From Candidatus Omnitrophota bacterium (GTDB lineage Bacteria > Omnitrophota > Gorgyraeia > Duberdicusellales > 4484-171): DNA of 64,000 nt. The notes under the pieces are model-generated. The model had not been told where the DNA came from. It did not search any database and worked only from the letters and a program-made list of their open reading frames with translations. The stretch is from positions 304 through 64,303 of the forward strand of contig JAIPHU010000003.1 in assembly GCA_021735045.1 (NCBI GenBank). Reading direction: 5' to 3'. The position numbers and the translations under genes are program-made. Shown piece by piece: positions 1 to 10,015 of the stretch (position 1 is its first letter; the number at the start of each line of letters is the position of its first letter).

Positions 1-392
<392 letters not shown>

Positions 393-393
<1 letters not shown>

Positions 394-1385
394 TAAATCA
401 TATATGCCCGGTATTTATTATTTTCAGGCTTTGTAGCTGTAACTGTTTCATCAACTTTCTTTTTATGATTTATTATATTTACCTTTATTTTATCTTTTGT
501 GGAGCTATATCTGGCAATGATAGTTGTACATAAATTTTTTATCGGCTCATTCATTTTTCCCCTTCCTAAACCAGTAGGGCCGGGCTTATCCAAAGGCCTA
601 AATATAAAGTCATCTTCTCTTTTTAAACTCTCCATTTTTTTATTTTCAGACTCATCTCTACCTACAATAAACTTAAAATCAGGATTAAACCTAAAATGCC
701 TGCCTACCTTAAGAAGTTCAATATTATCTAAATTAAATTGATCTTTTTTTATAATATCTTGAAGACGGCGAGAAAATCCTGAATCCGTTAACAAACAACC
801 TCCTCCAGCCCAAAAATAATTTTCTATTTTATATTTATTCGCAAATTCAAGCTGAACCTTTCTGCTTCTTCCCGAAATTGATAATAAATTATCTCTTTTT
901 ACCCATCTTTTTTTCTCGGGAATAGTTTCAGGAAATAATTGTGCTGAAAGCGGGCGCAACACTAAACCCTCAAGGCCTGATTCTCTTTCTACATTAAATA
1001 AAGCTTTTCGATGTTGAGACATCGGGCGTTGGCCCAAGACCTCACCTGTAATTATGAAAAAGGCTCCGATTTTATCCATATATTCTTTTGCCTTTTTTAA
1101 TATATATATTCGACAATCAATACAAGGATTTAAATTCTTTCCAAACCCATGTTTTGGATTTTTGATAATTGATAAATAATTTTCATCTAAAACTTTATTT
1201 TCGACCCTTATCCCTAACTGCTTTGAGATTTTATTAAGAAGAATTTGCTTTTGCTTTTCTGAAGAAACAGAGAAATGATTATCAAAATGTAGAGCCACTA
1301 CATCAATACCTTGCTCTTTAACTAATTTAGCGGCTATAATACTATCTAGGCCACCAGATAATAATGCTATTGCTTTGATTTTCAT
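393..1385 (-). CDS. PP-loop ATPase, ThiI-like sulfurtransferase domain without THUMP
   Basis: N-terminal SGGLDS PP-loop. TGEVLGQRPMSQ resembles the ThiI TGESLGQVASQ loop. NPCIDCR cysteine pair. Confidence 0.45.
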
Positions 1386-1442
1386 AATAAATCTTTAAAG
1401 AATTTATATCACAGCTATAGGCAGGTGTCAATTCAGGTGCTT

Positions 1443-2348
1443 CTAACTTAAATCCAACATCTTTTGAATACTTGCTTGTGCTTTAGAAATTATTTTTTCT
1501 TCAATTTTAACCTCATAACTTAAATCTTCTAAAGCTAGCAATAGTTTTTCTAAGTTAATTTTCTTCATATCAGGACAACTAGTTGCAGTAGAAGCCGGAT
1601 AAAAAGTTTTATCTGGTACCGCTTTTTTAAGAGGATAGACCATTCCCGGTTCTGTGCCCACAATTATCTCTTTTGCTGTAGTTTCTTTAGCAAACTTAAT
1701 CATCCCTGAGGTTGAAAGAGCTTGATCAGCTAAAGCTATAGTTTCGGGACGGCACTCAGGATGAACCATAATTTTTGCATCTGGATGGGCTTCTTTTTGT
1801 CTCTTTAAATCTTGCGGCATAATTTTTGCATGAGTTGGACAATAACCTTGCCAAATTATAAATTTACGATTAACTTGGCTTGCAGTATATTGAGCTAAAA
1901 ATTGATCAGGAACAAAAATAATCTCCTCATCCGGCCCAAAAGCTTTTTTAACTACCCTCACTGAATTAGCCGAAGTACAACAAAGATCAGATTCAGCTTT
2001 TACCTCAGCCGGACTATTAACATAAGTCAATACTTTAGCTTGGGGATACTTTTTCTTTAATTCTAGTAATTGTTTTGCAGTTATCATATCAGCCATGGGA
2101 CATCCGGCTTGCCTGTCAGGAATAATTACTTTTTTTTGCGGTGATAAAATTTTTGCAGTTTCAGCCATAAAATACACCCCACAAAAAATTATAATATCTG
2201 CATCAGTAGCTGCTGCTTTTCTACTTAAACCTAAAGAATCGCCCATAAAATCAGCAATATCTTGAACTTCTGGATTTTGATAGTTATGAACCAAAATTAC
2301 AGCATTTTTTTCTTTTTTTAACCTCTTAATTTTATCAATTATATTCAT
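1443..2348 (-). CDS. nadA: Quinolinate synthase
   Basis: 301 aa. ILVHNYQ, conserved Cys positions and length match NadA. Confidence 0.8.
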   Translation of the reverse strand: MNIIDKIKRLKKEKNAVILVHNYQNPEVQDIADFMGDSLGLSRKAAATDADIIIFCGVYFMAETAKILSPQKKVIIPDRQAGCPMADMITAKQLLELKKKYPQAKVLTYVNSPAEVKAESDLCCTSANSVRVVKKAFGPDEEIIFVPDQFLAQYTASQVNRKFIIWQGYCPTHAKIMPQDLKRQKEAHPDAKIMVHPECRPETIALADQALSTSGMIKFAKETTAKEIIVGTEPGMVYPLKKAVPDKTFYPASTATSCPDMKKINLEKLLLALEDLSYEVKIEEKIISKAQASIQKMLDLS

Positions 2349-3396
2349 CTAAAGCCTCCTCAATTATTCCTCCGCCTAAAACTATATCTTTATTATAAAA
2401 TACTACCGCTTGCCCTGGAGTAATCGCTTCTTGTTTATGCAAAAAAATAGCCTTTAATTTTTTACCATAGTTTTCTAAACTACAAACAGCCTCTTTATGA
2501 GCATAGCGAATCTTTGCTTTGGTTTTTTTAGGAAAAACATCCACGAAGAGATTAAGATTCCCCGCAATAAGACCTTTTTTCTTTAATCTTTTTTTCTTCC
2601 CTACAACAATTTTATTGTTTTTTGCATCAATAGCTAGAACATACAATGGTTCTTTGGCACTTATCCCTAGCCCTTTTCTTTGACCAATGGTATAAAAAGA
2701 TATCCCTTTATGTTTTCCTAGAGCTTCTCCGTCTGTATTTACAATTAAACCGCATTTTTCTCTTCCTTTTTTAACTTTAATAAAATCCGTATATTTTTTC
2801 TGCAAAATAAAACAAAGATCTTGGCTTTGAGGTTTATCGAAAACTGATAGTTGTCTTTCTTTAGCGATATCTTGAATTTGTTCCTTCTTATAATCAGCTA
2901 AAGGAAATAAAATATCAGCTAAATTTTCTTTTTTTATTGAGTAAATAAAATATGTCTGATCTTTAGTCTTATCTTTAGGCTTTTTTAATAAAAATCTATC
3001 TTTGTTTTTTTCAATTTTGGCATAATGGCCTGTTGCTAAAAAATTAAAACCTAATTTTTTTGCTTTTTTTAATAAAGCTCCAAATTTTATAACCTTATTA
3101 CAATGCACGCAAGGATTAGGAGTTTTACCTTCTAAATATCCTTTTAGAAAATTTTCTATTACTTTATTTTCTAAATCTTTTGAAAAATCTATTATGTAGT
3201 GTTTTATTTTTAATTGTTTTGCTATTTGCTTAGCATCTTCTATATTTTTTTGTTCAATTTTTCTTGACTCGCTATCTAAAGACTTATTGGCAAAAGACAT
3301 AGTAACGCCGGCAACAAAAAAACCAGCTTCTTTTAACAATAAAGCGGCAACAGATGAATCAACTCCACCACTCATTGCTACCATTACTTTTTTCAT
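2335..3396 (-). CDS. mnmA: tRNA-specific 2-thiouridylase
   Basis: MVAMSGGVDSSVAA PP-loop, NPCVHCN catalytic-Cys motif, 353 aa. Overlaps nadA by 14 nt. Confidence 0.85.
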   Translation of the reverse strand: MKKVMVAMSGGVDSSVAALLLKEAGFFVAGVTMSFANKSLDSESRKIEQKNIEDAKQIAKQLKIKHYIIDFSKDLENKVIENFLKGYLEGKTPNPCVHCNKVIKFGALLKKAKKLGFNFLATGHYAKIEKNKDRFLLKKPKDKTKDQTYFIYSIKKENLADILFPLADYKKEQIQDIAKERQLSVFDKPQSQDLCFILQKKYTDFIKVKKGREKCGLIVNTDGEALGKHKGISFYTIGQRKGLGISAKEPLYVLAIDAKNNKIVVGKKKRLKKKGLIAGNLNLFVDVFPKKTKAKIRYAHKEAVCSLENYGKKLKAIFLHKQEAITPGQAVVFYNKDIVLGGGIIEEALDEYN

Positions 3397-3424
3397 AATT
3401 TATTTAAGGTTAATAGGTGGGTAA

Positions 3425-3643
3425 TCAACGAAAATTAATATTAATGCCTTTTTCTTCCAATTGCTGAAAAAGACGCTTTAATTCTTTACTACTACCTTGG
3501 AAACTAACAATTGCCCAGCCAGTTGCAGTTGAAAAAGACGCTTCTAAAATACGCGGCACAACTTTAAACTCTTTGATTATATTATAAAAAAAAGGTTCTT
3601 TCTTAAAACTTGTAGGGATGTTTAATTCAACTTCTTTTGTCAT
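3425..3643 (-). CDS. Small NIL-domain-like protein (ferredoxin-fold, MetN C-terminal-like)
   Basis: 72 aa. NII...A...G...G pattern resembles the NIL domain. Sits immediately downstream of the radical SAM gene. Confidence 0.35.
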   Translation of the reverse strand: MTKEVELNIPTSFKKEPFFYNIIKEFKVVPRILEASFSTATGWAIVSFQGSSKELKRLFQQLEEKGININFR

Positions 3644-3688
3644 TTAACACTCCTTATTTTTCTAAATTGTACCATATTTAGAAGATTT

Positions 3689-4951
3689 TTAAAATTTTTC
3701 TTTTGGTAGATTGAAATAACCCATTTTTATTTTGAAAAAATTATTGCTAATATTACTAATAAGATTTAATATCCCGGTAGGGTTTAAATTATATTTTGCT
3801 ATTTTATTGGCATAATATAAAGGATCAATATTTAAATTCCGCCATTGGATCATATCTATTTTATTTTTTTTCAAAAATTTAATTAATTTATCTATTTGTT
3901 GTCTTGAATCACTAAAACCAGGAAAAATAAATAAATTGAGGGACACAAATTTATTATATTTATTAGCAACCTTAATTGATTTGCAAACATCTAAAAAGCG
4001 ATAGTTTTTGGGCCGAAAATACAAATTATAGAATTTTTCTTCCGGGCTATTTAGGCTAATCCGAAAAGAATCAACTCCGGCTTGACAAAGTTGCTCTATC
4101 TTATCTGGATAACTCCCATTGGTATTGATATTAATTGTTCCACGTTTAGTTTTTTGCCTAACCTGTTTTATGCTTTCTGCAATTAAATCGGCCTCCAATA
4201 ACGGCTCCCCTTCACAACCCTGGCCAAAACTAACGATTGCTTCTTTAGCCTGTTTTAGATGATTACTCATAATTTCAGACACCTCAAGAATACTCGGTTT
4301 AAAATTAATCCTTTGGTGCGAAGCAATGCAATTTTTATCTTGTTTGCTTAAACAACCAATACAGCGTGCATTGCAAAACCTTGCCACAGGCAAGGGCGCC
4401 TCCCATCGTTGCATAAAAAGATTTTTGGCCGCAAGACAATTATAGTTTAGAGCACAATTAAAAAGATGCCGGTAAAGGCGGTTCTGGGAATACTTTTTGA
4501 GAAAAATATTTGCATTTTTCTCAATTAATTTATTATTATAAAAACCCGGCGACTGTCTAATTCTTTTGTCAATCTTTTTTGCTGCCACTTTGAATTTACC
4601 ACCGTAAAATCCGCAAGCAGTATAAGCCCAAAGTGGCAGTTTTTGTCTCTTTTTGGCAAATTTTGCTGCAGGATTATATAAACGTAGATAAGACGGGGGG
4701 AGAAAAGCTGAAACTGGATATACTCTTTTTCCTTTAACTTTTTCTATTTGTTCAACCTTTTTAGTTAAAGGATCATATCCTAACGGATAACTATCTGGTA
4801 AATAAAAAAATGTTGTTCCTGAGGGAGCAGCAATTAATTCTTCCTGCCCAGGCAAGCAAAATTTATCTAACAATGCTCCTGCCATCCTTAAATAAGGATG
4901 TGAATGAATTTTACCCTCTTTATCAGCAAACAATAAATATGGAAGATTCAT
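3689..4951 (-). CDS. Radical SAM enzyme with ~190-aa N-terminal extension
   Basis: CNARCIGC (CxxxCxxC) around residue 195. SFGQGCEGEPLL glycine-rich SAM motif. NTNG. Confidence 0.7.
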   Translation of the reverse strand: MNLPYLLFADKEGKIHSHPYLRMAGALLDKFCLPGQEELIAAPSGTTFFYLPDSYPLGYDPLTKKVEQIEKVKGKRVYPVSAFLPPSYLRLYNPAAKFAKKRQKLPLWAYTACGFYGGKFKVAAKKIDKRIRQSPGFYNNKLIEKNANIFLKKYSQNRLYRHLFNCALNYNCLAAKNLFMQRWEAPLPVARFCNARCIGCLSKQDKNCIASHQRINFKPSILEVSEIMSNHLKQAKEAIVSFGQGCEGEPLLEADLIAESIKQVRQKTKRGTININTNGSYPDKIEQLCQAGVDSFRISLNSPEEKFYNLYFRPKNYRFLDVCKSIKVANKYNKFVSLNLFIFPGFSDSRQQIDKLIKFLKKNKIDMIQWRNLNIDPLYYANKIAKYNLNPTGILNLISNISNNFFKIKMGYFNLPKEKF

Positions 4952-5056
4952 AAAATACCAAATTCGAATTTCAAAATTCGAAGCACGAAATAATTTAAAA
5001 AATCAAAAAAAGTATAATCCCTGTTTTAAAAAATTGAAATATTTAGACATTCGAAT

Positions 5057-6760
5057 TTATTGTAAAGCAACGCCGACAATTTGAGGATTAATGATCAGAA
5101 TTAAACCTAAAACTACCATAATCACTCCACCAATTAACTTTATAATCTTAATTTGTCTCTGGCTAATTCTCTTAGCCTGGAAAGTATAGCCAAATATTGC
5201 AACTATTACAACTAAGGGCAATACATAAATTAAATTATAAAATAGTATCCACAAATAATAACTACTAGACTCTATAGCGATTTTACCAGCAAGTACAGTT
5301 GTAAATATTATGGGAAAACCCGCCGTACAAGGAAGTTCAACAAATGAACTAAATACTGCTAACCCTATTGAAGACAAAATCAACACAAACACAGAACCTT
5401 CCTCAGCTATCTTCCTCAATCGATTCATCTTTTTAACAAGAACTTCTTTTTGTTTTTGGCCAATAGTTAAAGAAACTCCTTTTTTAAAGAAAAAGAAATC
5501 TTTACAATTAATTAATCCAGCTATAATTGCAATAACTCCAATAATTAACCGTAAAGGGGTAAAAAATCCAAAATATTTAAATATATTAAGCCAAGCTACC
5601 ATAAACAGAAAATAAAAAAGAAAAATAATAAATACAAAAACAAAACCTACTGCGTATATTTTCTTCTTATTACCCGAAGCTGAAACTAATAAAGCAAGCA
5701 GTAAAGTTAAAACAAATAAATTACAAGGATTAAAACCGTCAACAAGTGCAATAATAAAAGTAAAAAAGGGTAAGGGTAAATTAGCTCCAAACTCTTTTAA
5801 AAAATCAGTGGGGATATTTTTTGCTATAATAAAAATAAAGGCAAAAGTAACTAGCGAAATAATTATTATGCCTAAATTTTTTAAGGCTTTACTTTTTTTT
5901 GAAAATAATAATTTTATTTTTTTCCAAAATAATAACAAAAATAGCAATAATATGACTAAGGCTTCTAAACTAATATATAAGTTTTTAGTTTTGATTGTCT
6001 TTTGCAAAGATAGAATATAATCAGTTAAAAATTTTTTTTCGGTTTGATTGGGTTTGGGTTTATCCCTACTTACCTTTTCTTGCTCCCATTGAAATATCCA
6101 CCCTCCTATTTTTACTGCATTTTTAAAAAAAATTTTCCCTTTAGATATTAAAATATCTCTAGGTTTAATTTTTTTGGAATCTAGTTCTTCTAAATTTGAT
6201 TTTAAATCAGATGATATAAGTAGCTTCTTTAATCTATTATTATTGCCATTTTTTTTACCTGAAATTAACACTCTGTCTTTATGCCAAATCTTTACCGCAC
6301 CTGGTAATGAGTTTAAATCTAGCTCACTAAAAGATTCACTTTGACCTGAGGGCAAAGAACAAAAATTCACGTCTTTGGTCCTTAATGTTTTATCTATTTT
6401 ATTAATCTCTCTGCTTCCTAAAGCTTTTGAATCTTTATTTAACAAAAAGAAAGGTACTCCGGAACGAGTGTTAGACAAGTAATTATCAAAATATTCCATA
6501 GCTATTTTTTTATTAGCTGAAGCTGATTTATAAATCTCATACTCAATAACTACTAAATCATCATATTCGGCAAGTAATTTAGAAAAAATTAAAGGATCCG
6601 TCGTGGCACAGTTACTACATCCAATACCGGTAAGATATACAGCACAAAGATCGGGATATTTAGGAGAAACTTCTTTAGCGGAAGAAAAATTTATCGGGGC
6701 TAAAAATAATCCTAAAATAAATAATATTAATATAATTTCTGTATTTTTTTGCCTAAACAT
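5057..6760 (-). CDS. Thioredoxin-like (CxxC) periplasmic domain fused to a CcdA/DsbD-type transmembrane disulfide-transfer domain
   Basis: Signal peptide. CSNC motif. Multi-pass membrane region with DGFNPCN and ELPCTAGFP, matching the two conserved Cys-containing segments of CcdA/DsbD-beta. Confidence 0.5.
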   Translation of the reverse strand: MFRQKNTEIILILFILGLFLAPINFSSAKEVSPKYPDLCAVYLTGIGCSNCATTDPLIFSKLLAEYDDLVVIEYEIYKSASANKKIAMEYFDNYLSNTRSGVPFFLLNKDSKALGSREINKIDKTLRTKDVNFCSLPSGQSESFSELDLNSLPGAVKIWHKDRVLISGKKNGNNNRLKKLLISSDLKSNLEELDSKKIKPRDILISKGKIFFKNAVKIGGWIFQWEQEKVSRDKPKPNQTEKKFLTDYILSLQKTIKTKNLYISLEALVILLLFLLLFWKKIKLLFSKKSKALKNLGIIIISLVTFAFIFIIAKNIPTDFLKEFGANLPLPFFTFIIALVDGFNPCNLFVLTLLLALLVSASGNKKKIYAVGFVFVFIIFLFYFLFMVAWLNIFKYFGFFTPLRLIIGVIAIIAGLINCKDFFFFKKGVSLTIGQKQKEVLVKKMNRLRKIAEEGSVFVLILSSIGLAVFSSFVELPCTAGFPIIFTTVLAGKIAIESSSYYLWILFYNLIYVLPLVVIVAIFGYTFQAKRISQRQIKIIKLIGGVIMVVLGLILIINPQIVGVALQ

Positions 6761-6806
6761 AATTAAATCATATTATATCAAATTATTTTCGGAATAAAAC
6801 CTTATT

Positions 6807-6823
6807 CCCACCTCTGAGGTGGG
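6807..6823 (+). promoter_or_regulatory. Hairpin CCCACCTC/GAGGTGGG sequestering the Shine-Dalgarno of the 6826 gene
   Basis: Perfect 8-nt inverted repeat. Its 3' arm GAGGTGG is the only SD-like sequence before ATG 6826. The 5' arm mimics the anti-SD. Confidence 0.4.
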
Positions 6824-6825
6824 AA

Positions 6826-9231
6826 ATGGTTGTAATATCAAAAAAAACAGCTAAAATGATTGATATGATTTATAAATTTAATAACAATACAGAAGAATTT
6901 ACAGTAGATAACGCTTACAAATACAACAACTATTTCCCTTTAACTAATAGATCCGGAAGCTTACTTTCTTCGATCAGTCCTAATTTATCCGGGGATATAA
7001 AAAGAGATAATGATCACTTCCTTACTCCACCGGCAACGATAATCGATACAAGACATAATCCTTTGGTCCGCAGAGATTTTTTTATAAAAATTAATTCTGG
7101 TTCAACAAAAGAAAAAATTATCCGGCTCTCAGATCCATATCCAGACAAGCTTCAAGCTGGTTTTTTTTATCATAAACTTACAAAATACACAAAGTTAATC
7201 GATGTAGAAATATTAAACTTTATCCCTTACAACCTCGATCTAGAACTAATGCAAATTAAAATAAAAAATAAATCAAATAAAGACTTAGATATTTCCGCTT
7301 GCTCATCAATCCCTCTCTACGGAAGAAGTGAGTCAACATTACGAGACCATCGTCATGTAAGCAGCCTTTTAAATCATATTAATTTAACCAAAAATGGCAT
7401 CTTACTTAGGCCTACACTCTTATTTAACGAAAAAGGGCATCAATTAAATCAAACTACTTATTTTTGTTTAGCTAAAAGTCCAAAAGCTAAAATTAAAGGC
7501 CAATTCCCTACTCTTGATTATTTTTGTGGCCAAGGAGACCTGATAAAGCCTGATGCAGTTTATAAAAATAAAAAATCAGCTAAAAAGAAATTAAATAGCT
7601 TTGACGGTAAAGAAGCAATAGCTGCTTTTAATTTTGAAACTAAAAAATTAAAAAAAGGTAAACAAATAAACTATATCATCGGTTTAGGCTTGATAACAGG
7701 CTCTGTGGGAAAATGTCAAAATAAAATAGATAACCTATTTTCTAAAGTCAACACCAACACAAAGATAAAAAAAGAACTTCATAATACTAAAAAATATTGG
7801 CGAAAGAGTTTTAAAAAAATAGAGTTTAATTTTAGCGATAAAAATTATAATTGTTGGCTTAAATGGGTAAAAGCTCAGCCGACCTTGCGAAAGCTTTTTG
7901 GCTGTTCCTTTCTGCCTCATTTTGATTACGGCAAAGGCGGCAGGGGTTGGAGGGATCTTTGGCAAGATGCATTAATCCTATTACACTATGAACCAAAAGA
8001 AGCTCGCAATTTAATTATCAACTCTTTTGCTGGTGTAAGAATAGATGGCTCTAATGCAACGATTATTAAAAAGGATAACTCTTTTTTACCAGACCGAAAT
8101 AAAATCAGCCGGGTTTGGTCTGACCATGGAATCTGGCCGTATCTTACTCTAAAATCTTATCTCAATCACAGTGCTGATATAAATATTTTAAATAATCAGC
8201 TACCTTATTTTCGTGACCCCCACTTATTTCGAGCCAGAAAAATAGATCCTAATTTTAAACAAAAAGATTTTATTTTAAAAACTACAAATAATAAAATTTA
8301 TAAGGGAACTATCCTAGAACACCTGCTTATCCAAAATTTAACATCATTTTTTAATGTTGGTTTTCACAATATTATCAAGTTAGAAAGTGCTGATTGGAAC
8401 GATGCTTTAGACATGGCTGATGATTCTGGAGAGACTGTAACTTTTAGTTTTATGTATGCGCACAATTTAAAAAGTATCGCTCAATTATTGCGCCTTTTGC
8501 AAAAAAAACAAAAGAAAATAAAAATTTTAAAAGAGTTAACTTTGCTCCTTGATAGCTTAGATAGCCCCGTTAATTACAATCATTTTTCTCAAAAACAAAA
8601 AAGATTAAAAAAATATTTAGCCAGTACTATAAAAATATCCGGAGAAAAAATAGAAGTTTCTTTAGAAAATGTTATCTATGATTTAGAAAAAAAATATAAA
8701 CACCTCAAAAATTGGCTCCTAGAAAAGGAGTGGTTAAAAGAAGGTTTTTTTAACGGCTACTATGATAATGCCGGAAAAAGAGTCGGGGGTAAAAACAAAG
8801 GAAAAATAAAGATGATGCTTGCTCCACAAGTTTTTGCCATAATGAGTGAAATAGCTACTGTAGATCAAATTAAAAAAATCTGGCGATCAACAAACAAGTA
8901 TTTAAAAGATAATACTAGAAGTTTTCGGCTTAATACAGATTTTGGCTCTACTTACCAAGAATTAGGCAGAGCTTTTGGTTTTAAGTTCGGTGATAAAGAA
9001 AATGGAGCTTTTTTTAGCCATATGATTATTATGTTTTCTTATGCTCTTTACAAAAGAGGTTTTAAAAAAGAAGGCGCTAAAACCCTCGCTTCTATCTATA
9101 AAATGGTTACATCTAACTCTAATACAACTTACCCCCAACTACCTGAATATTTCAACAGCCAGGGGCAAGGCCTTTATTCCTACCTTACCGGCTCAGCCAG
9201 CTGGTATATCCATACTTTATTACAAAATTAA
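6826..9231 (+). CDS. (alpha/alpha)6-barrel glycoside hydrolase/phosphorylase-like protein (GH94/GH65/GDE-like)
   Basis: 801 aa. GGRGWRDLWQD and ESADWNDALDMADD motifs resemble the catalytic region of cellobiose-phosphorylase-like / amylo-alpha-1,6-glucosidase families. Confidence 0.4.
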   Translation: MVVISKKTAKMIDMIYKFNNNTEEFTVDNAYKYNNYFPLTNRSGSLLSSISPNLSGDIKRDNDHFLTPPATIIDTRHNPLVRRDFFIKINSGSTKEKIIRLSDPYPDKLQAGFFYHKLTKYTKLIDVEILNFIPYNLDLELMQIKIKNKSNKDLDISACSSIPLYGRSESTLRDHRHVSSLLNHINLTKNGILLRPTLLFNEKGHQLNQTTYFCLAKSPKAKIKGQFPTLDYFCGQGDLIKPDAVYKNKKSAKKKLNSFDGKEAIAAFNFETKKLKKGKQINYIIGLGLITGSVGKCQNKIDNLFSKVNTNTKIKKELHNTKKYWRKSFKKIEFNFSDKNYNCWLKWVKAQPTLRKLFGCSFLPHFDYGKGGRGWRDLWQDALILLHYEPKEARNLIINSFAGVRIDGSNATIIKKDNSFLPDRNKISRVWSDHGIWPYLTLKSYLNHSADINILNNQLPYFRDPHLFRARKIDPNFKQKDFILKTTNNKIYKGTILEHLLIQNLTSFFNVGFHNIIKLESADWNDALDMADDSGETVTFSFMYAHNLKSIAQLLRLLQKKQKKIKILKELTLLLDSLDSPVNYNHFSQKQKRLKKYLASTIKISGEKIEVSLENVIYDLEKKYKHLKNWLLEKEWLKEGFFNGYYDNAGKRVGGKNKGKIKMMLAPQVFAIMSEIATVDQIKKIWRSTNKYLKDNTRSFRLNTDFGSTYQELGRAFGFKFGDKENGAFFSHMIIMFSYALYKRGFKKEGAKTLASIYKMVTSNSNTTYPQLPEYFNSQGQGLYSYLTGSASWYIHTLLQN

Positions 9232-9238
9232 AAAATTA

Positions 9239-9442
9239 TTATTTGCGGGCGATATCCTGAATATTTAAAGCAATATTAAAAAGTAAAGCCACCACACCTA
9301 ACTTCAGCAAGCTGGAAGCAGTTACTACTGTTGGCCCCAGCAAAAAATTAAAATCAAGTAGCTTTATTATACAGGAAAATCCAATAAGAATAACCGCAGC
9401 TATAAGGAATAAGTCTTCTCCTAACTTATACTCTTTTTTCAT
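9239..9442 (-). CDS. Small hydrophobic hypothetical protein
   Basis: 67 aa, two predicted transmembrane segments, no recognizable motif. May be spurious. Confidence 0.25.
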   Translation of the reverse strand: MKKEYKLGEDLFLIAAVILIGFSCIIKLLDFNFLLGPTVVTASSLLKLGVVALLFNIALNIQDIARK

Positions 9443-9520
9443 TTTGCCCCCTTTTAACTAATTTGGAAAATACCACAATTATTAATTTTTTTATTTCTCT
9501 CTTTTACCTGATCTACAAAT

Positions 9521-10015
9521 TTAGAAAGATATAGAAATAATTTTAGTTTGGTCACTTTTCGGATCAATAAGTTCTACTGAATCTACCTTTATTTTTGAAA
9601 CAGTGAAATTGCTTATCTTATCACCTTTAAAAACTCGCTTACCGTTGATAATCGCAAATGGATTATCTTTATCAAAAACTACTCCTTCTAATCTATAGGC
9701 AGAATTTGATTGTTTTGGTTTTGATTTTTCAGCTGCAGCCTTCCGGCGCCCGCCCAGGCTATTTTTTATCTTTTCTGCACCAGTTTCCTTTATAGACCCT
9801 GTTGCACTATCCTTTTTCCTAGGCCCAGAAGAAACTATTCTTTTAAAGCTAGAAAAATTATAAGCTAGAATAAAAGCCAGAGCAAAAACAATAAAAATCA
9901 AAGTAACTAAAATAATCTTTTTGGAATTAGGTTTTTTTGGCTGGTTATTCTTGCTAGATAAAGATTCGGGAGATTTACCTTCGGCCTTTTTTAAAGCTTC
10001 ATAGATTATGCTCAT
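9521..10015 (-). CDS. GspB/ExeB-like protein (T2SSB-type C-terminal domain), single transmembrane segment
   Basis: Single TM. C-terminal LEGVVFDKDNPFAIINGKRVFKGDKI...VELID matches the GspB/PilP beta-sandwich motif. Downstream of exeA. Confidence 0.45.
   Translation of the reverse strand: MSIIYEALKKAEGKSPESLSSKNNQPKKPNSKKIILVTLIFIVFALAFILAYNFSSFKRIVSSGPRKKDSATGSIKETGAEKIKNSLGGRRKAAAEKSKPKQSNSAYRLEGVVFDKDNPFAIINGKRVFKGDKISNFTVSKIKVDSVELIDPKSDQTKIISISF

Follow-up and report, generated by a model that had tools for sequence, protein, structure and literature searches.

A large unnamed family of radical SAM enzymes and its lineage-specific gene setting in the Omnitrophota

Whether neighbouring genes for a membrane protein, an enzyme of the radical S-adenosylmethionine (SAM) superfamily and a small NIL-domain protein constitute one dedicated system, or whether the enzyme belongs to a family that acts independently of its two neighbours, is the question raised by a locus in a 64,000-nt stretch of a Candidatus Omnitrophota genome (contig JAIPHU010000003.1; the whole stretch is referred to here as the window). 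An initial annotation of this DNA had proposed a candidate redox and maturation module, and it had identified and placed the three open reading frames (ORFs) correctly. All of them lie on the minus strand of the genome, and they encode a membrane protein of 567 residues (6760..5057; ORF, alignment, hydropathy and weak hhalign matches), a radical SAM enzyme of 420 residues (4951..3689; ORF, Pfam Radical_SAM match, full-length homologues and AlphaFold2 model) and a stand-alone NIL-domain protein of 72 residues (3643..3425). The details given with these genes were likewise right, namely the CNARCIGC motif at residues 193–200 of the enzyme, the gap of exactly 45 nt between the enzyme stop codon and the NIL gene, and the NIL-like nature of the small protein.

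The enzyme was assigned to the radical SAM superfamily on three grounds: the CX3CX2C motif CNARCIGC (C193, C197 and C200; 4352..4375, minus strand), which was read from the translation and aligns with the motif of NifB; a score of 56.5 bits against Pfam Radical_SAM (PF04055) over residues 188–354, with a cutoff of 29.5; and the partial TIM-barrel fold of its model. Residues 1–187 matched no Pfam family, and an NCBIfam scan of the enzyme returned nothing near a cutoff, the top model being MoaA (TIGR02666) with 51.1 bits against a cutoff of 284, which places the enzyme outside the common radical SAM families, as had been initially proposed. The expected lack of a SPASM tail was borne out as well. 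Because no cysteine occurs beyond residue 323, there is no SPASM or twitch tail; in addition, no Pfam SPASM match was obtained for the enzyme, and all NCBIfam SPASM models scored far under their cutoffs.

The enzyme is 100% identical to a protein deposited at NCBI as 'Candidatus Omnitrophica', and full-length homologues were confirmed in at least 598 stretches from a one-genome-per-species collection, representing at least 12 phyla. These include Omnitrophota, Desulfobacterota (among them Desulfopila aestuarii DSM 18488), Spirochaetota, KSB1, Poribacteria, Planctomycetota, NC10, Bacteroidota, Myxococcota, Fibrobacterota and Auribacterota, and also Bacillota and Eremiobacterota. At E≤1e-30, the homologues fell into 181 clusters (50% identity), most of which align from residue 1–10 to about residue 415, and ten longer family members carried no extra Pfam domain. 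The source annotations of the homologues were only generic (radical SAM protein, PFL-activating enzyme, MoaA or TYW1), and no description of the family was found in the literature on radical SAM enzymes with NIL, CcdA or Omnitrophota. The enzyme is a member of a large, unnamed and uncharacterised bacterial family whose members are related over their full length.

In addition to the SAM motif, three further cysteines, read from the translation, are conserved in this family and are proposed as ligands of an auxiliary cluster. Two of them, C166 and C172 (C166-x5-C172, CALNYNC; 4436..4456, minus strand), belong to a helical linker that precedes strand β1, and the third, C246, is part of FGQGCEGEP (4202..4228, minus strand), a GGE-type SAM-binding motif whose GEP part aligns with the GEP of NifB and MoaA. 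In an alignment of 55 diverse members (alignment A1), C166, C172, E184, C193, FGQGC246EG, G292, R297 and P344-G345 were invariant, and C197 and C200 were kept in at least 90% of the sequences. Across 201 full-length members, C166 and C172 were cysteines in 200 and C246 in all 201, a conservation at least equal to that of the SAM-cluster cysteines; each cysteine of the SAM motif was retained in 79–81 of 82 distant representatives. That C166, C172 and C246 are as conserved as the cysteines of the SAM cluster suggests a second Fe-S cluster. C166 and C172 are situated on a helix-turn-helix just before β1, and C246 at the end of β2, two residues before the GGE glycine; since both sites face the cluster side of the barrel, a three-cysteine auxiliary [4Fe-4S] cluster with an open iron is the most economical reading. 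Conservation and geometric reasoning taken together, the enzyme probably harbors a second Fe-S cluster. Separately, one protein (P0229, similar to P0123 at its N-terminus) and about 3 of the 82 representatives lack the CX3CX2C cysteines yet retain C166, C172 and C246; judging from sequence, such members are perhaps paralogues without catalytic activity in which the second cluster is still bound.

The AlphaFold2 model of the full-length enzyme had a predicted local distance difference test score (pLDDT) of 95.2, and a Foldseek comparison with the PDB gave 107 matches at E≤0.001, with the top-ranked radical SAM structures at E≤1e-7. These matches, to NifB, BlsE, viperin-like enzymes, LipA/LIAS, PFL-AE, MoaA and HydE, were confined to the core, with query-normalised template modelling (TM) scores of at most 0.41, and the sequence matches began at about residue 187. 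Similarly, a profile search of the PDB sequences returned NifB first, with 37 bits (E=1e-8), followed by MoaA and BlsE. The part of the protein before the core includes a β-rich domain (residues 1–132; 4556..4951, minus strand) that is conserved across the 55 diverse family members and that, when modelled alone, reached a pLDDT of 93.5 with 13 strands. It had no significant Foldseek match in the PDB (best E=0.6, TM-score below 0.2) or in a viral structure library (best E=0.3). In line with the initial annotation, which had called this domain unusual, it belongs to no Pfam family, and it is a candidate for a new fold.

With respect to characterised systems, the best matches in both sequence and fold were the cores of MoaA and NifB (PDB 6Y1X, 7BI7 and 1TV7; Foldseek E=3e-9 for NifB), with which the enzyme shares CX3CX2C, GEP, xTNG, an SLN strand and PGxxD and, like which, it probably has an additional Fe-S cluster. 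The extra cysteines are arranged differently, with two before the motif and one in the GGE loop, whereas the triad of MoaA is C-terminal and the K1 and K2 ligands of NifB are found at other sites. Furthermore, the 130-residue N-terminal β domain is absent from MoaA and NifB, and the enzyme does not carry a NifX-like tail. MoaA itself was rejected as an identity on its NCBIfam score and on the lack of C-terminal cysteines, and NifB because the 37 bits cover the core only, no NifB NCBIfam model matched and the extra cysteines occupy other positions. Neither UPF0004 nor TRAM was matched in Pfam or NCBIfam, which speaks against MiaB, RimO or MtaB, and the CX4CX5C and RSSY motifs of LipA are absent from the enzyme. 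LIAS/LipA nevertheless were among the structures that Foldseek aligned over the greatest lengths (up to 296 columns), and the proposed auxiliary ligands, as in LipA, are N-terminal to CX3CX2C at a similar distance, whereas an hhalign comparison with Escherichia coli LipA was weak (probability 17%) and aligned only C172 with a LipA ligand (C73). A SPASM/twitch maturase such as PqqE, anSME, SkfB or SuiB was also rejected, as neither SPASM, nor a PqqD-like RRE domain, nor a precursor gene was found.

In order to place the enzyme in its genomic context, 81 loci were surveyed from the enzyme side, 75 of which came from outside the Omnitrophota. No universal neighbour emerged in the 81 loci, and the contexts outside the Omnitrophota were heterogeneous: the commonest Pfam families among 141 flanking proteins were EamA (8), histidine kinases (7) and Fur (6), and HemW-like, PurD, TyrS and RNase Y proteins were also among the neighbours, as were an ABC ATPase, RelA, Dtd and the CCA-adding enzyme in a locus from the Bacillota. 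Neither the membrane protein (searched with a hidden Markov model) nor a NIL protein accompanied the enzyme in any of the 75 loci, and both were equally missing beside an Omnitrophota enzyme of 47% identity (L006). Since in most phyla the enzyme is found by itself, amid housekeeping genes of various kinds, its substrate is expected to be a common cellular molecule (RNA, cofactor or protein) rather than a locally encoded peptide.

A different picture was found among the Omnitrophota whose enzymes are 58–82% identical to that of the window. Here, a membrane-protein homologue was located upstream in nine of nine contexts (window, L001, L002–4, L005, L088/89, L090/91, L092, L093 and L094), directly so except where a DUF1573 gene intervenes. 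The gaps between the two genes were mostly 0–28 nt or overlaps (5000/5001 in L092 and 5001/5001 in L093), and about 75–105 nt in L094 and in the window, where the gap measures 105 nt. The slot upstream of the enzyme was filled either by a short type of membrane protein (338–401 residues) or by a long type (567–574 residues), which are 22–26% identical to each other. The flanks of the pair varied: downstream, TatAC, ThiFHGSE (on the other strand), TPR genes or sulfur genes were found, and a GH94 gene was adjacent upstream of the pair or, in L092, four genes away with the pair still abutting. The co-conservation envisaged in the initial annotation thus holds for the membrane protein in the close relatives and fails in the other phyla and in L006. 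Of the two observations that were to refute the module, one was made, the neighbours not being broadly co-conserved, and the other was not, as the enzyme falls in no characterised housekeeping family. As the pair is constant in the clade and not outside, it is best described as a stable lineage-specific operon and not as a property of either protein family.

We favour, at roughly an even chance, the reading that a radical SAM enzyme that acts autonomously and belongs to a broad, unnamed family has been captured into this lineage-specific Omnitrophota operon, with a sulfur-related reaction, or one modifying a thio-cofactor or RNA, as the preferred activity. Among the other explanations, the trio as a dedicated maturation system for an envelope-bound peptide, protein or cofactor, in which the membrane protein would keep the product's periplasmic thiols reduced and the NIL protein would serve as carrier or chaperone, is unlikely. 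It would account for the invariable position of the membrane protein immediately upstream in the clade, often overlapping or abutting while the outer flanks differ, for the use of a short or a long type in the same slot, for the DUF1573 protein between the two in L001 and L005, and for a NIL subfamily that was seen only directly after the enzyme. It does not sit well with an enzyme that lacks either partner in all 75 loci of other phyla and in the Omnitrophota locus of 47% identity, nor with a NIL gene missing in about half of the Omnitrophota contexts. From the side of the long-type membrane protein, moreover, the enzyme was downstream in 1 of 48 informative loci and a NIL gene in none of 80. 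The absence of SPASM/twitch and RRE domains and the lack of precursor space in the gaps of 105 and 45 nt, in which no ORF was found, tell against the peptide maturation considered in the initial annotation, and no conserved small ORF was found across the enzyme loci.

The membrane protein itself was examined in an alignment of 34 relatives, in which a periplasmic CxxC (C48-S-N-C51; 6608..6619), DGxNPC (here DGFNPCN with membrane Cys346 in core helix 1; 5720..5740) and ExxCTxG (here ELPCTAG with membrane Cys478 in core helix 4; 5318..5338), all on the minus strand, were invariant and Pro103 was conserved in at least 90%. Hydropathy indicated a signal or anchor segment, a periplasmic region of about 235 residues that comprises a thioredoxin-like CxxC domain and an extra domain, two helices and a six-helix core (2+6), with the core cysteines in helices 1 and 4, positive-inside loops and both core ends outside. 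No Pfam match was obtained for this protein, and neither DsbD nor DsbD_2 appeared at E≤5 in the 34 members, 2 of which weakly matched Thioredoxin_2. An hhalign comparison with thioredoxin placed CxxC and Pro103 on the active site and the cis-proline, weakly (E=0.0025, probability 12%), and one with E. coli DsbD placed ELPC on the C285 region, also weakly (E=0.004, probability 8.6%). Short relatives scored 13–34 bits against the ArsG permease model NF040495 (cutoff 200), two of them over nearly the whole model, one short relative matched the DsbD part of TsoB, and several homologues are labelled CcdA at JGI. A profile search against the PDB sequences gave only non-significant DsbA/ScsC-like matches at CxxC, and no internal 3+3 repeat of the transmembrane core was detected by hhalign.

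The protein resembles DsbD, CcdA, ScsB and SoxV in its six-helix core, where helices 1 and 4 each bear one proline-preceded cysteine, and DsbD-type conduits in its fused periplasmic CxxC domain and in the thioredoxin and thioredoxin-reductase-like gene neighbours of related loci. It differs from DsbD and CcdA in matching no DsbD Pfam family, in the acidic residues before each cysteine (D341 and E475) and, in the long type, in an additional periplasmic domain (about 140 residues) and a further two helices. From its sequence features, it is plausibly a distant protein of the DsbD/CcdA/ArsG type with a thioredoxin-like domain; the thioredoxin–CcdA fusion initially proposed fits CxxC, core cysteines and topology, and has neither a Pfam match nor a strong model match. 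DsbD/CcdA-type proteins use thiol-disulfide exchange to carry electrons from thioredoxin outward to the periplasm. Given this direction and chemistry, it is not plausible that the membrane protein supplies reductant to a radical SAM cluster in the cytoplasm, and the earlier idea of a dedicated reductant conduit for the enzyme is rejected.

The surroundings of the long type, the one type covered from the membrane-protein side, were analyzed in an unbiased sample of 80 metagenome loci; 48 of these loci, in which the sequence runs on for 1300 nt or more downstream, were informative for the genes there. NifX-like Nitro_FeMo-Co proteins (16/80), DUF134 (15/80), a periplasmic thioredoxin lipoprotein that is always directly upstream (14/80), MinD/ParA-ferredoxin ATPases (13/80), a membrane MarR-type regulator (13/80), thioredoxin (TrxA, 7/80) and a thioredoxin-reductase-like flavoprotein (TrxB-like, 6/80) were found as neighbours. 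These surroundings are an uncharacterised set of metal or Fe-S and thiol-redox genes, and the TrxA, TrxB-like and periplasmic thioredoxin neighbours fit a thioredoxin-fed, outward-facing thiol-disulfide relay. The gene clusters around the long type (L101–L180, L085 and L086) usually also hold DUF5320, ARMT1-like and MBL genes, the long-type gene of L086 adjoins Fur and ferritin genes in addition, and two long-type paralogues (P0321 and P0322) are encoded on one 3.36-Mb contig. In L085, from another Omnitrophota genome, a different radical SAM gene (263 codons; 5200–5991) lies 9 nt upstream of the long-type homologue; as a candidate family member it was rejected, being unrelated to the window enzyme beyond the superfamily level.

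The 72-residue protein matched PF09383 with 34.8 bits against a cutoff of 24, its residues 5–69 covering positions 3–71 of the 73 in the model. We found 15 close homologues (63–96% identity, 72–87 residues), and all those with a named source come from Omnitrophota. The NIL gene occurs in four of the nine contexts, and in every readable locus (window, L005, L088/89 and L090/91) it directly follows the enzyme; several further clusters of NIL homologues agree with enzyme clusters in the length of their longest contig, pointing to the same arrangement. The gene next after it varies between MnmA, a SpoU methylase, which overlaps the NIL gene in L088, and a ThiI-like protein. Elsewhere in the 81-locus set, no NIL gene was found within 8 kb of the enzyme, save for a NIL-ferredoxin gene about 4.6 kb downstream in L002–4. 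The small partner protein of the initial annotation is real in the sense that the only place where its subfamily was found is immediately downstream of the enzyme gene, and it is restricted to a subset of Omnitrophota contexts. NIL domains have been described in MetN and in the NIL-ferredoxin that partners DUF39 in homocysteine synthesis (PMC5764234), and the protein shares the Pfam domain PF09383 with MetN and with the NIL-ferredoxins MA1822 and DvMF_0262. Like the NIL-ferredoxin of the DUF39 pathway, it is encoded in the neighbourhood of genes for sulfur amino acids, and HcyBio and a NIL-ferredoxin are encoded 4–5 kb downstream in related loci. Unlike NIL-ferredoxin and MetN, it stands alone, without a ferredoxin or ABC ATPase part, and its gene adjoins a radical SAM gene, whereas that of NIL-ferredoxin adjoins a DUF39 gene.

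Genes of sulfur metabolism recur downstream of the pair in the Omnitrophota, including CysK, Thi4, HcyBio with NIL-ferredoxin, MetY, MetX, MetW and ThiE, and Rrf2 is found there too. The commonest downstream neighbour was a ThiI-like protein with an NFACT-R_2 domain (window, L002–4, L005, L088/89, L090/91 and L094), and the window and its closest relatives (L090 and L091) were the only loci with MnmA close to the enzyme. In L002–L004, L088 and L094, a compact sulfur island located 4–6 kb downstream comprises Rrf2, the ThiI-like protein, CysK, Thi4 and HcyBio (DUF39) with NIL-ferredoxin, and the latter two indicate the DUF39 route to homocysteine in these loci. The richness of the Omnitrophota context in sulfur genes is one point of resemblance to sulfur-inserting enzymes (LipA, MiaB, RimO and BioB). 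The neighbours thus point weakly toward sulfur or RNA/cofactor modification, without naming a substrate.

In the favoured reading of an autonomous enzyme captured into a clade-specific operon, the CX3CX2C cluster and the GGE-type motif bind and reductively cleave SAM, as motif and fold of the MoaA/NifB-like partial TIM barrel show, and C166, C172 and C246 would ligate a second [4Fe-4S] cluster with one open iron on top of the barrel. This second cluster would serve either for substrate binding, as in MoaA and TYW1, or for the donation of sulfur, as in LipA and MiaB, and the family-specific N-terminal β domain would dock the substrate. In one Omnitrophota clade, the enzyme gene would then have been captured into an operon whose membrane protein may relay thioredoxin electrons via C346 and C478 to the periplasmic CxxC and would not feed electrons to the enzyme. 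A small, presumably ligand-binding NIL protein is encoded downstream in a subset of the loci, and the operon heads an island of sulfur-handling genes (MnmA, ThiI-like, CysK, Thi4 and DUF39/HcyBio with NIL-ferredoxin).

Several points weigh against this reading. The auxiliary cluster is argued solely from conservation and geometric reasoning, no substrate is named, and C166, C172 and C246 could instead be catalytic or structural. The assignment to DsbD is weak, given the lack of a Pfam DsbD match and hhalign probabilities of 9–12%. In addition, the link to the sulfur island exists within the Omnitrophota only, where the packing of genes in small genomes could have produced it, and the constant tight pairing in nine contexts, whether the membrane protein is of the short or the long type, hints at a real functional tie for which this reading has no explanation. 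A more far-reaching version would be a widespread new modification, by sulfur insertion or another auxiliary-cluster reaction, on RNA, a cofactor or an envelope component, with a substrate-binding fold and a 2+1 arrangement of cysteines that would both be new; in the Omnitrophota, the enzyme would be functionally coupled to a thiol-redox protein of the envelope and a NIL carrier. We regard this version as unlikely.

Another possibility, to which we assign a low probability, is that the enzyme acts in tRNA or rRNA modification, for instance in the xnm5s2U34 or thiolation network, with its N-terminal domain binding RNA. The nearby genes for MnmA (window and L090/91), the ThiI-like/NFACT-R_2 protein (six contexts) and a SpoU methylase (L088) would agree with such a role, as would the TyrS, RNase Y, Dtd and CCA-adding enzyme neighbours elsewhere and the order of enzyme, 240-residue protein, NadB and MnmC2-like methyltransferase in L099, and a precedent for radical SAM enzymes in mnm5s2U synthesis is given in PMC13228596. 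Each of these associations, however, is confined to one or two lineages, and neighbours of this kind are common by chance in compact genomes. Furthermore, no RNA-binding domain (THUMP, TRAM or PUA) was recognisable in the enzyme, either with Pfam or in the fold search of the N-terminal domain.

It is similarly improbable, in our estimation, that the adjacency is merely an inherited gene order devoid of functional meaning, with unrelated housekeeping genes packed in a small genome. Most of the same loci likewise retain the divergent GH94-like gene and, upstream, the secretin and AAA genes; this, the overlap of the functionally unrelated MnmA and NadA genes here, and the absence of any association outside the clade would all be expected from it. 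On the other hand, membrane protein and enzyme abut in L092 although GH94 is four genes off, the pair has persisted through many rearrangements of the downstream flank, and the slot holds two membrane-protein subtypes that are only 22–26% identical.

With regard to its significance, the result corrects the idea of the trio as a general maturation module, and the object of value is the enzyme family, with its candidate new N-terminal fold, a probable new auxiliary-cluster arrangement, a wide spread and no annotation. Many radical SAM families are still uncharacterised, and members of the superfamily with a second cluster catalyse several of the most demanding reactions in the biochemistry of cofactors, RNA and lipids. 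Occurring in hundreds of species and many phyla without a Pfam or NCBIfam entry of its own, the family is a concrete target for enzymology and phylogenetic profiling. The Omnitrophota operon offers a first, weak hint toward sulfur handling or envelope thiol redox; if enzyme, redox protein and NIL carrier were indeed coupled, they would define a new sulfur-trafficking or maturation pathway.

As to the remaining features of the locus, DUF1573 genes (128–135 codons) between the membrane-protein and enzyme genes are located at 7643–8029 in L001 and at 7462–7869 in L005. In L099 (623–4855), from an unrelated lineage of low GC content with an enzyme of 45% identity, an enolase gene on the opposite strand is followed by the genes for the enzyme, the 240-residue protein, NadB and the MnmC2-like methyltransferase, which overlap or abut; combining NAD synthesis and mnm5s2U genes, this order echoes that of enzyme, NIL protein, MnmA and NadA in the window. 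Apart from these one or two lineages, no locus had MnmA, NadA, NadB or MnmC2 close to the enzyme.

A ribosome-binding site, AAGGAG, precedes the NIL gene, and a scan of the intergenic gaps revealed no terminator-like site between the membrane-protein, enzyme and NIL genes. No credible Rfam match for a riboswitch or other RNA was obtained in positions 1–10000 of the window, the single hit, mir-6134 (E=0.37), being at chance level, and no Rfam family reached its gathering score in 20 enzyme loci from other phyla. The 105-nt gap upstream of the enzyme contains a perfect 20-nt palindrome, TTCGAATTTCAAAATTCGAA (4963-4982), 11–30 nt upstream of the enzyme ATG, which occurs once in the window and has no counterpart in the shorter gap of L090. 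With 3 mismatches allowed, at least one match was present in 32 of 100 shuffles, and the palindrome could be an operator or a product of chance.

Downstream of the NIL gene, the minus strand encodes MnmA (tRNA 2-thiouridine34 synthase; 3396..2335; NF001138, 406.9 bits against a cutoff of 284), the quinolinate synthase NadA (2348..1443; NF006878, 424.8 bits) and the ThiI-like PP-loop ATPase with a C-terminal NFACT-R_2 RNA-binding domain (1385..393; Pfam ThiI and NFACT-R_2). The MnmA stop and the NadA start overlap by 14 nt (2335–2348), so that unrelated housekeeping genes are translationally coupled, which calls for caution in deriving function from adjacency in this genome. The ThiI-like protein, with 330 residues, a CxxC motif and no NCBIfam model above its cutoff, may be an uncharacterised Fe-S-dependent tRNA thiolase. 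On the plus strand, divergent from the membrane-protein gene, an 801-residue GH94-like protein of the cellobiose/chitobiose phosphorylase superfamily is encoded (6826..9231), which was recognised by Pfam only, with no NCBIfam match, and whose gene is kept at the same position in most related Omnitrophota loci.

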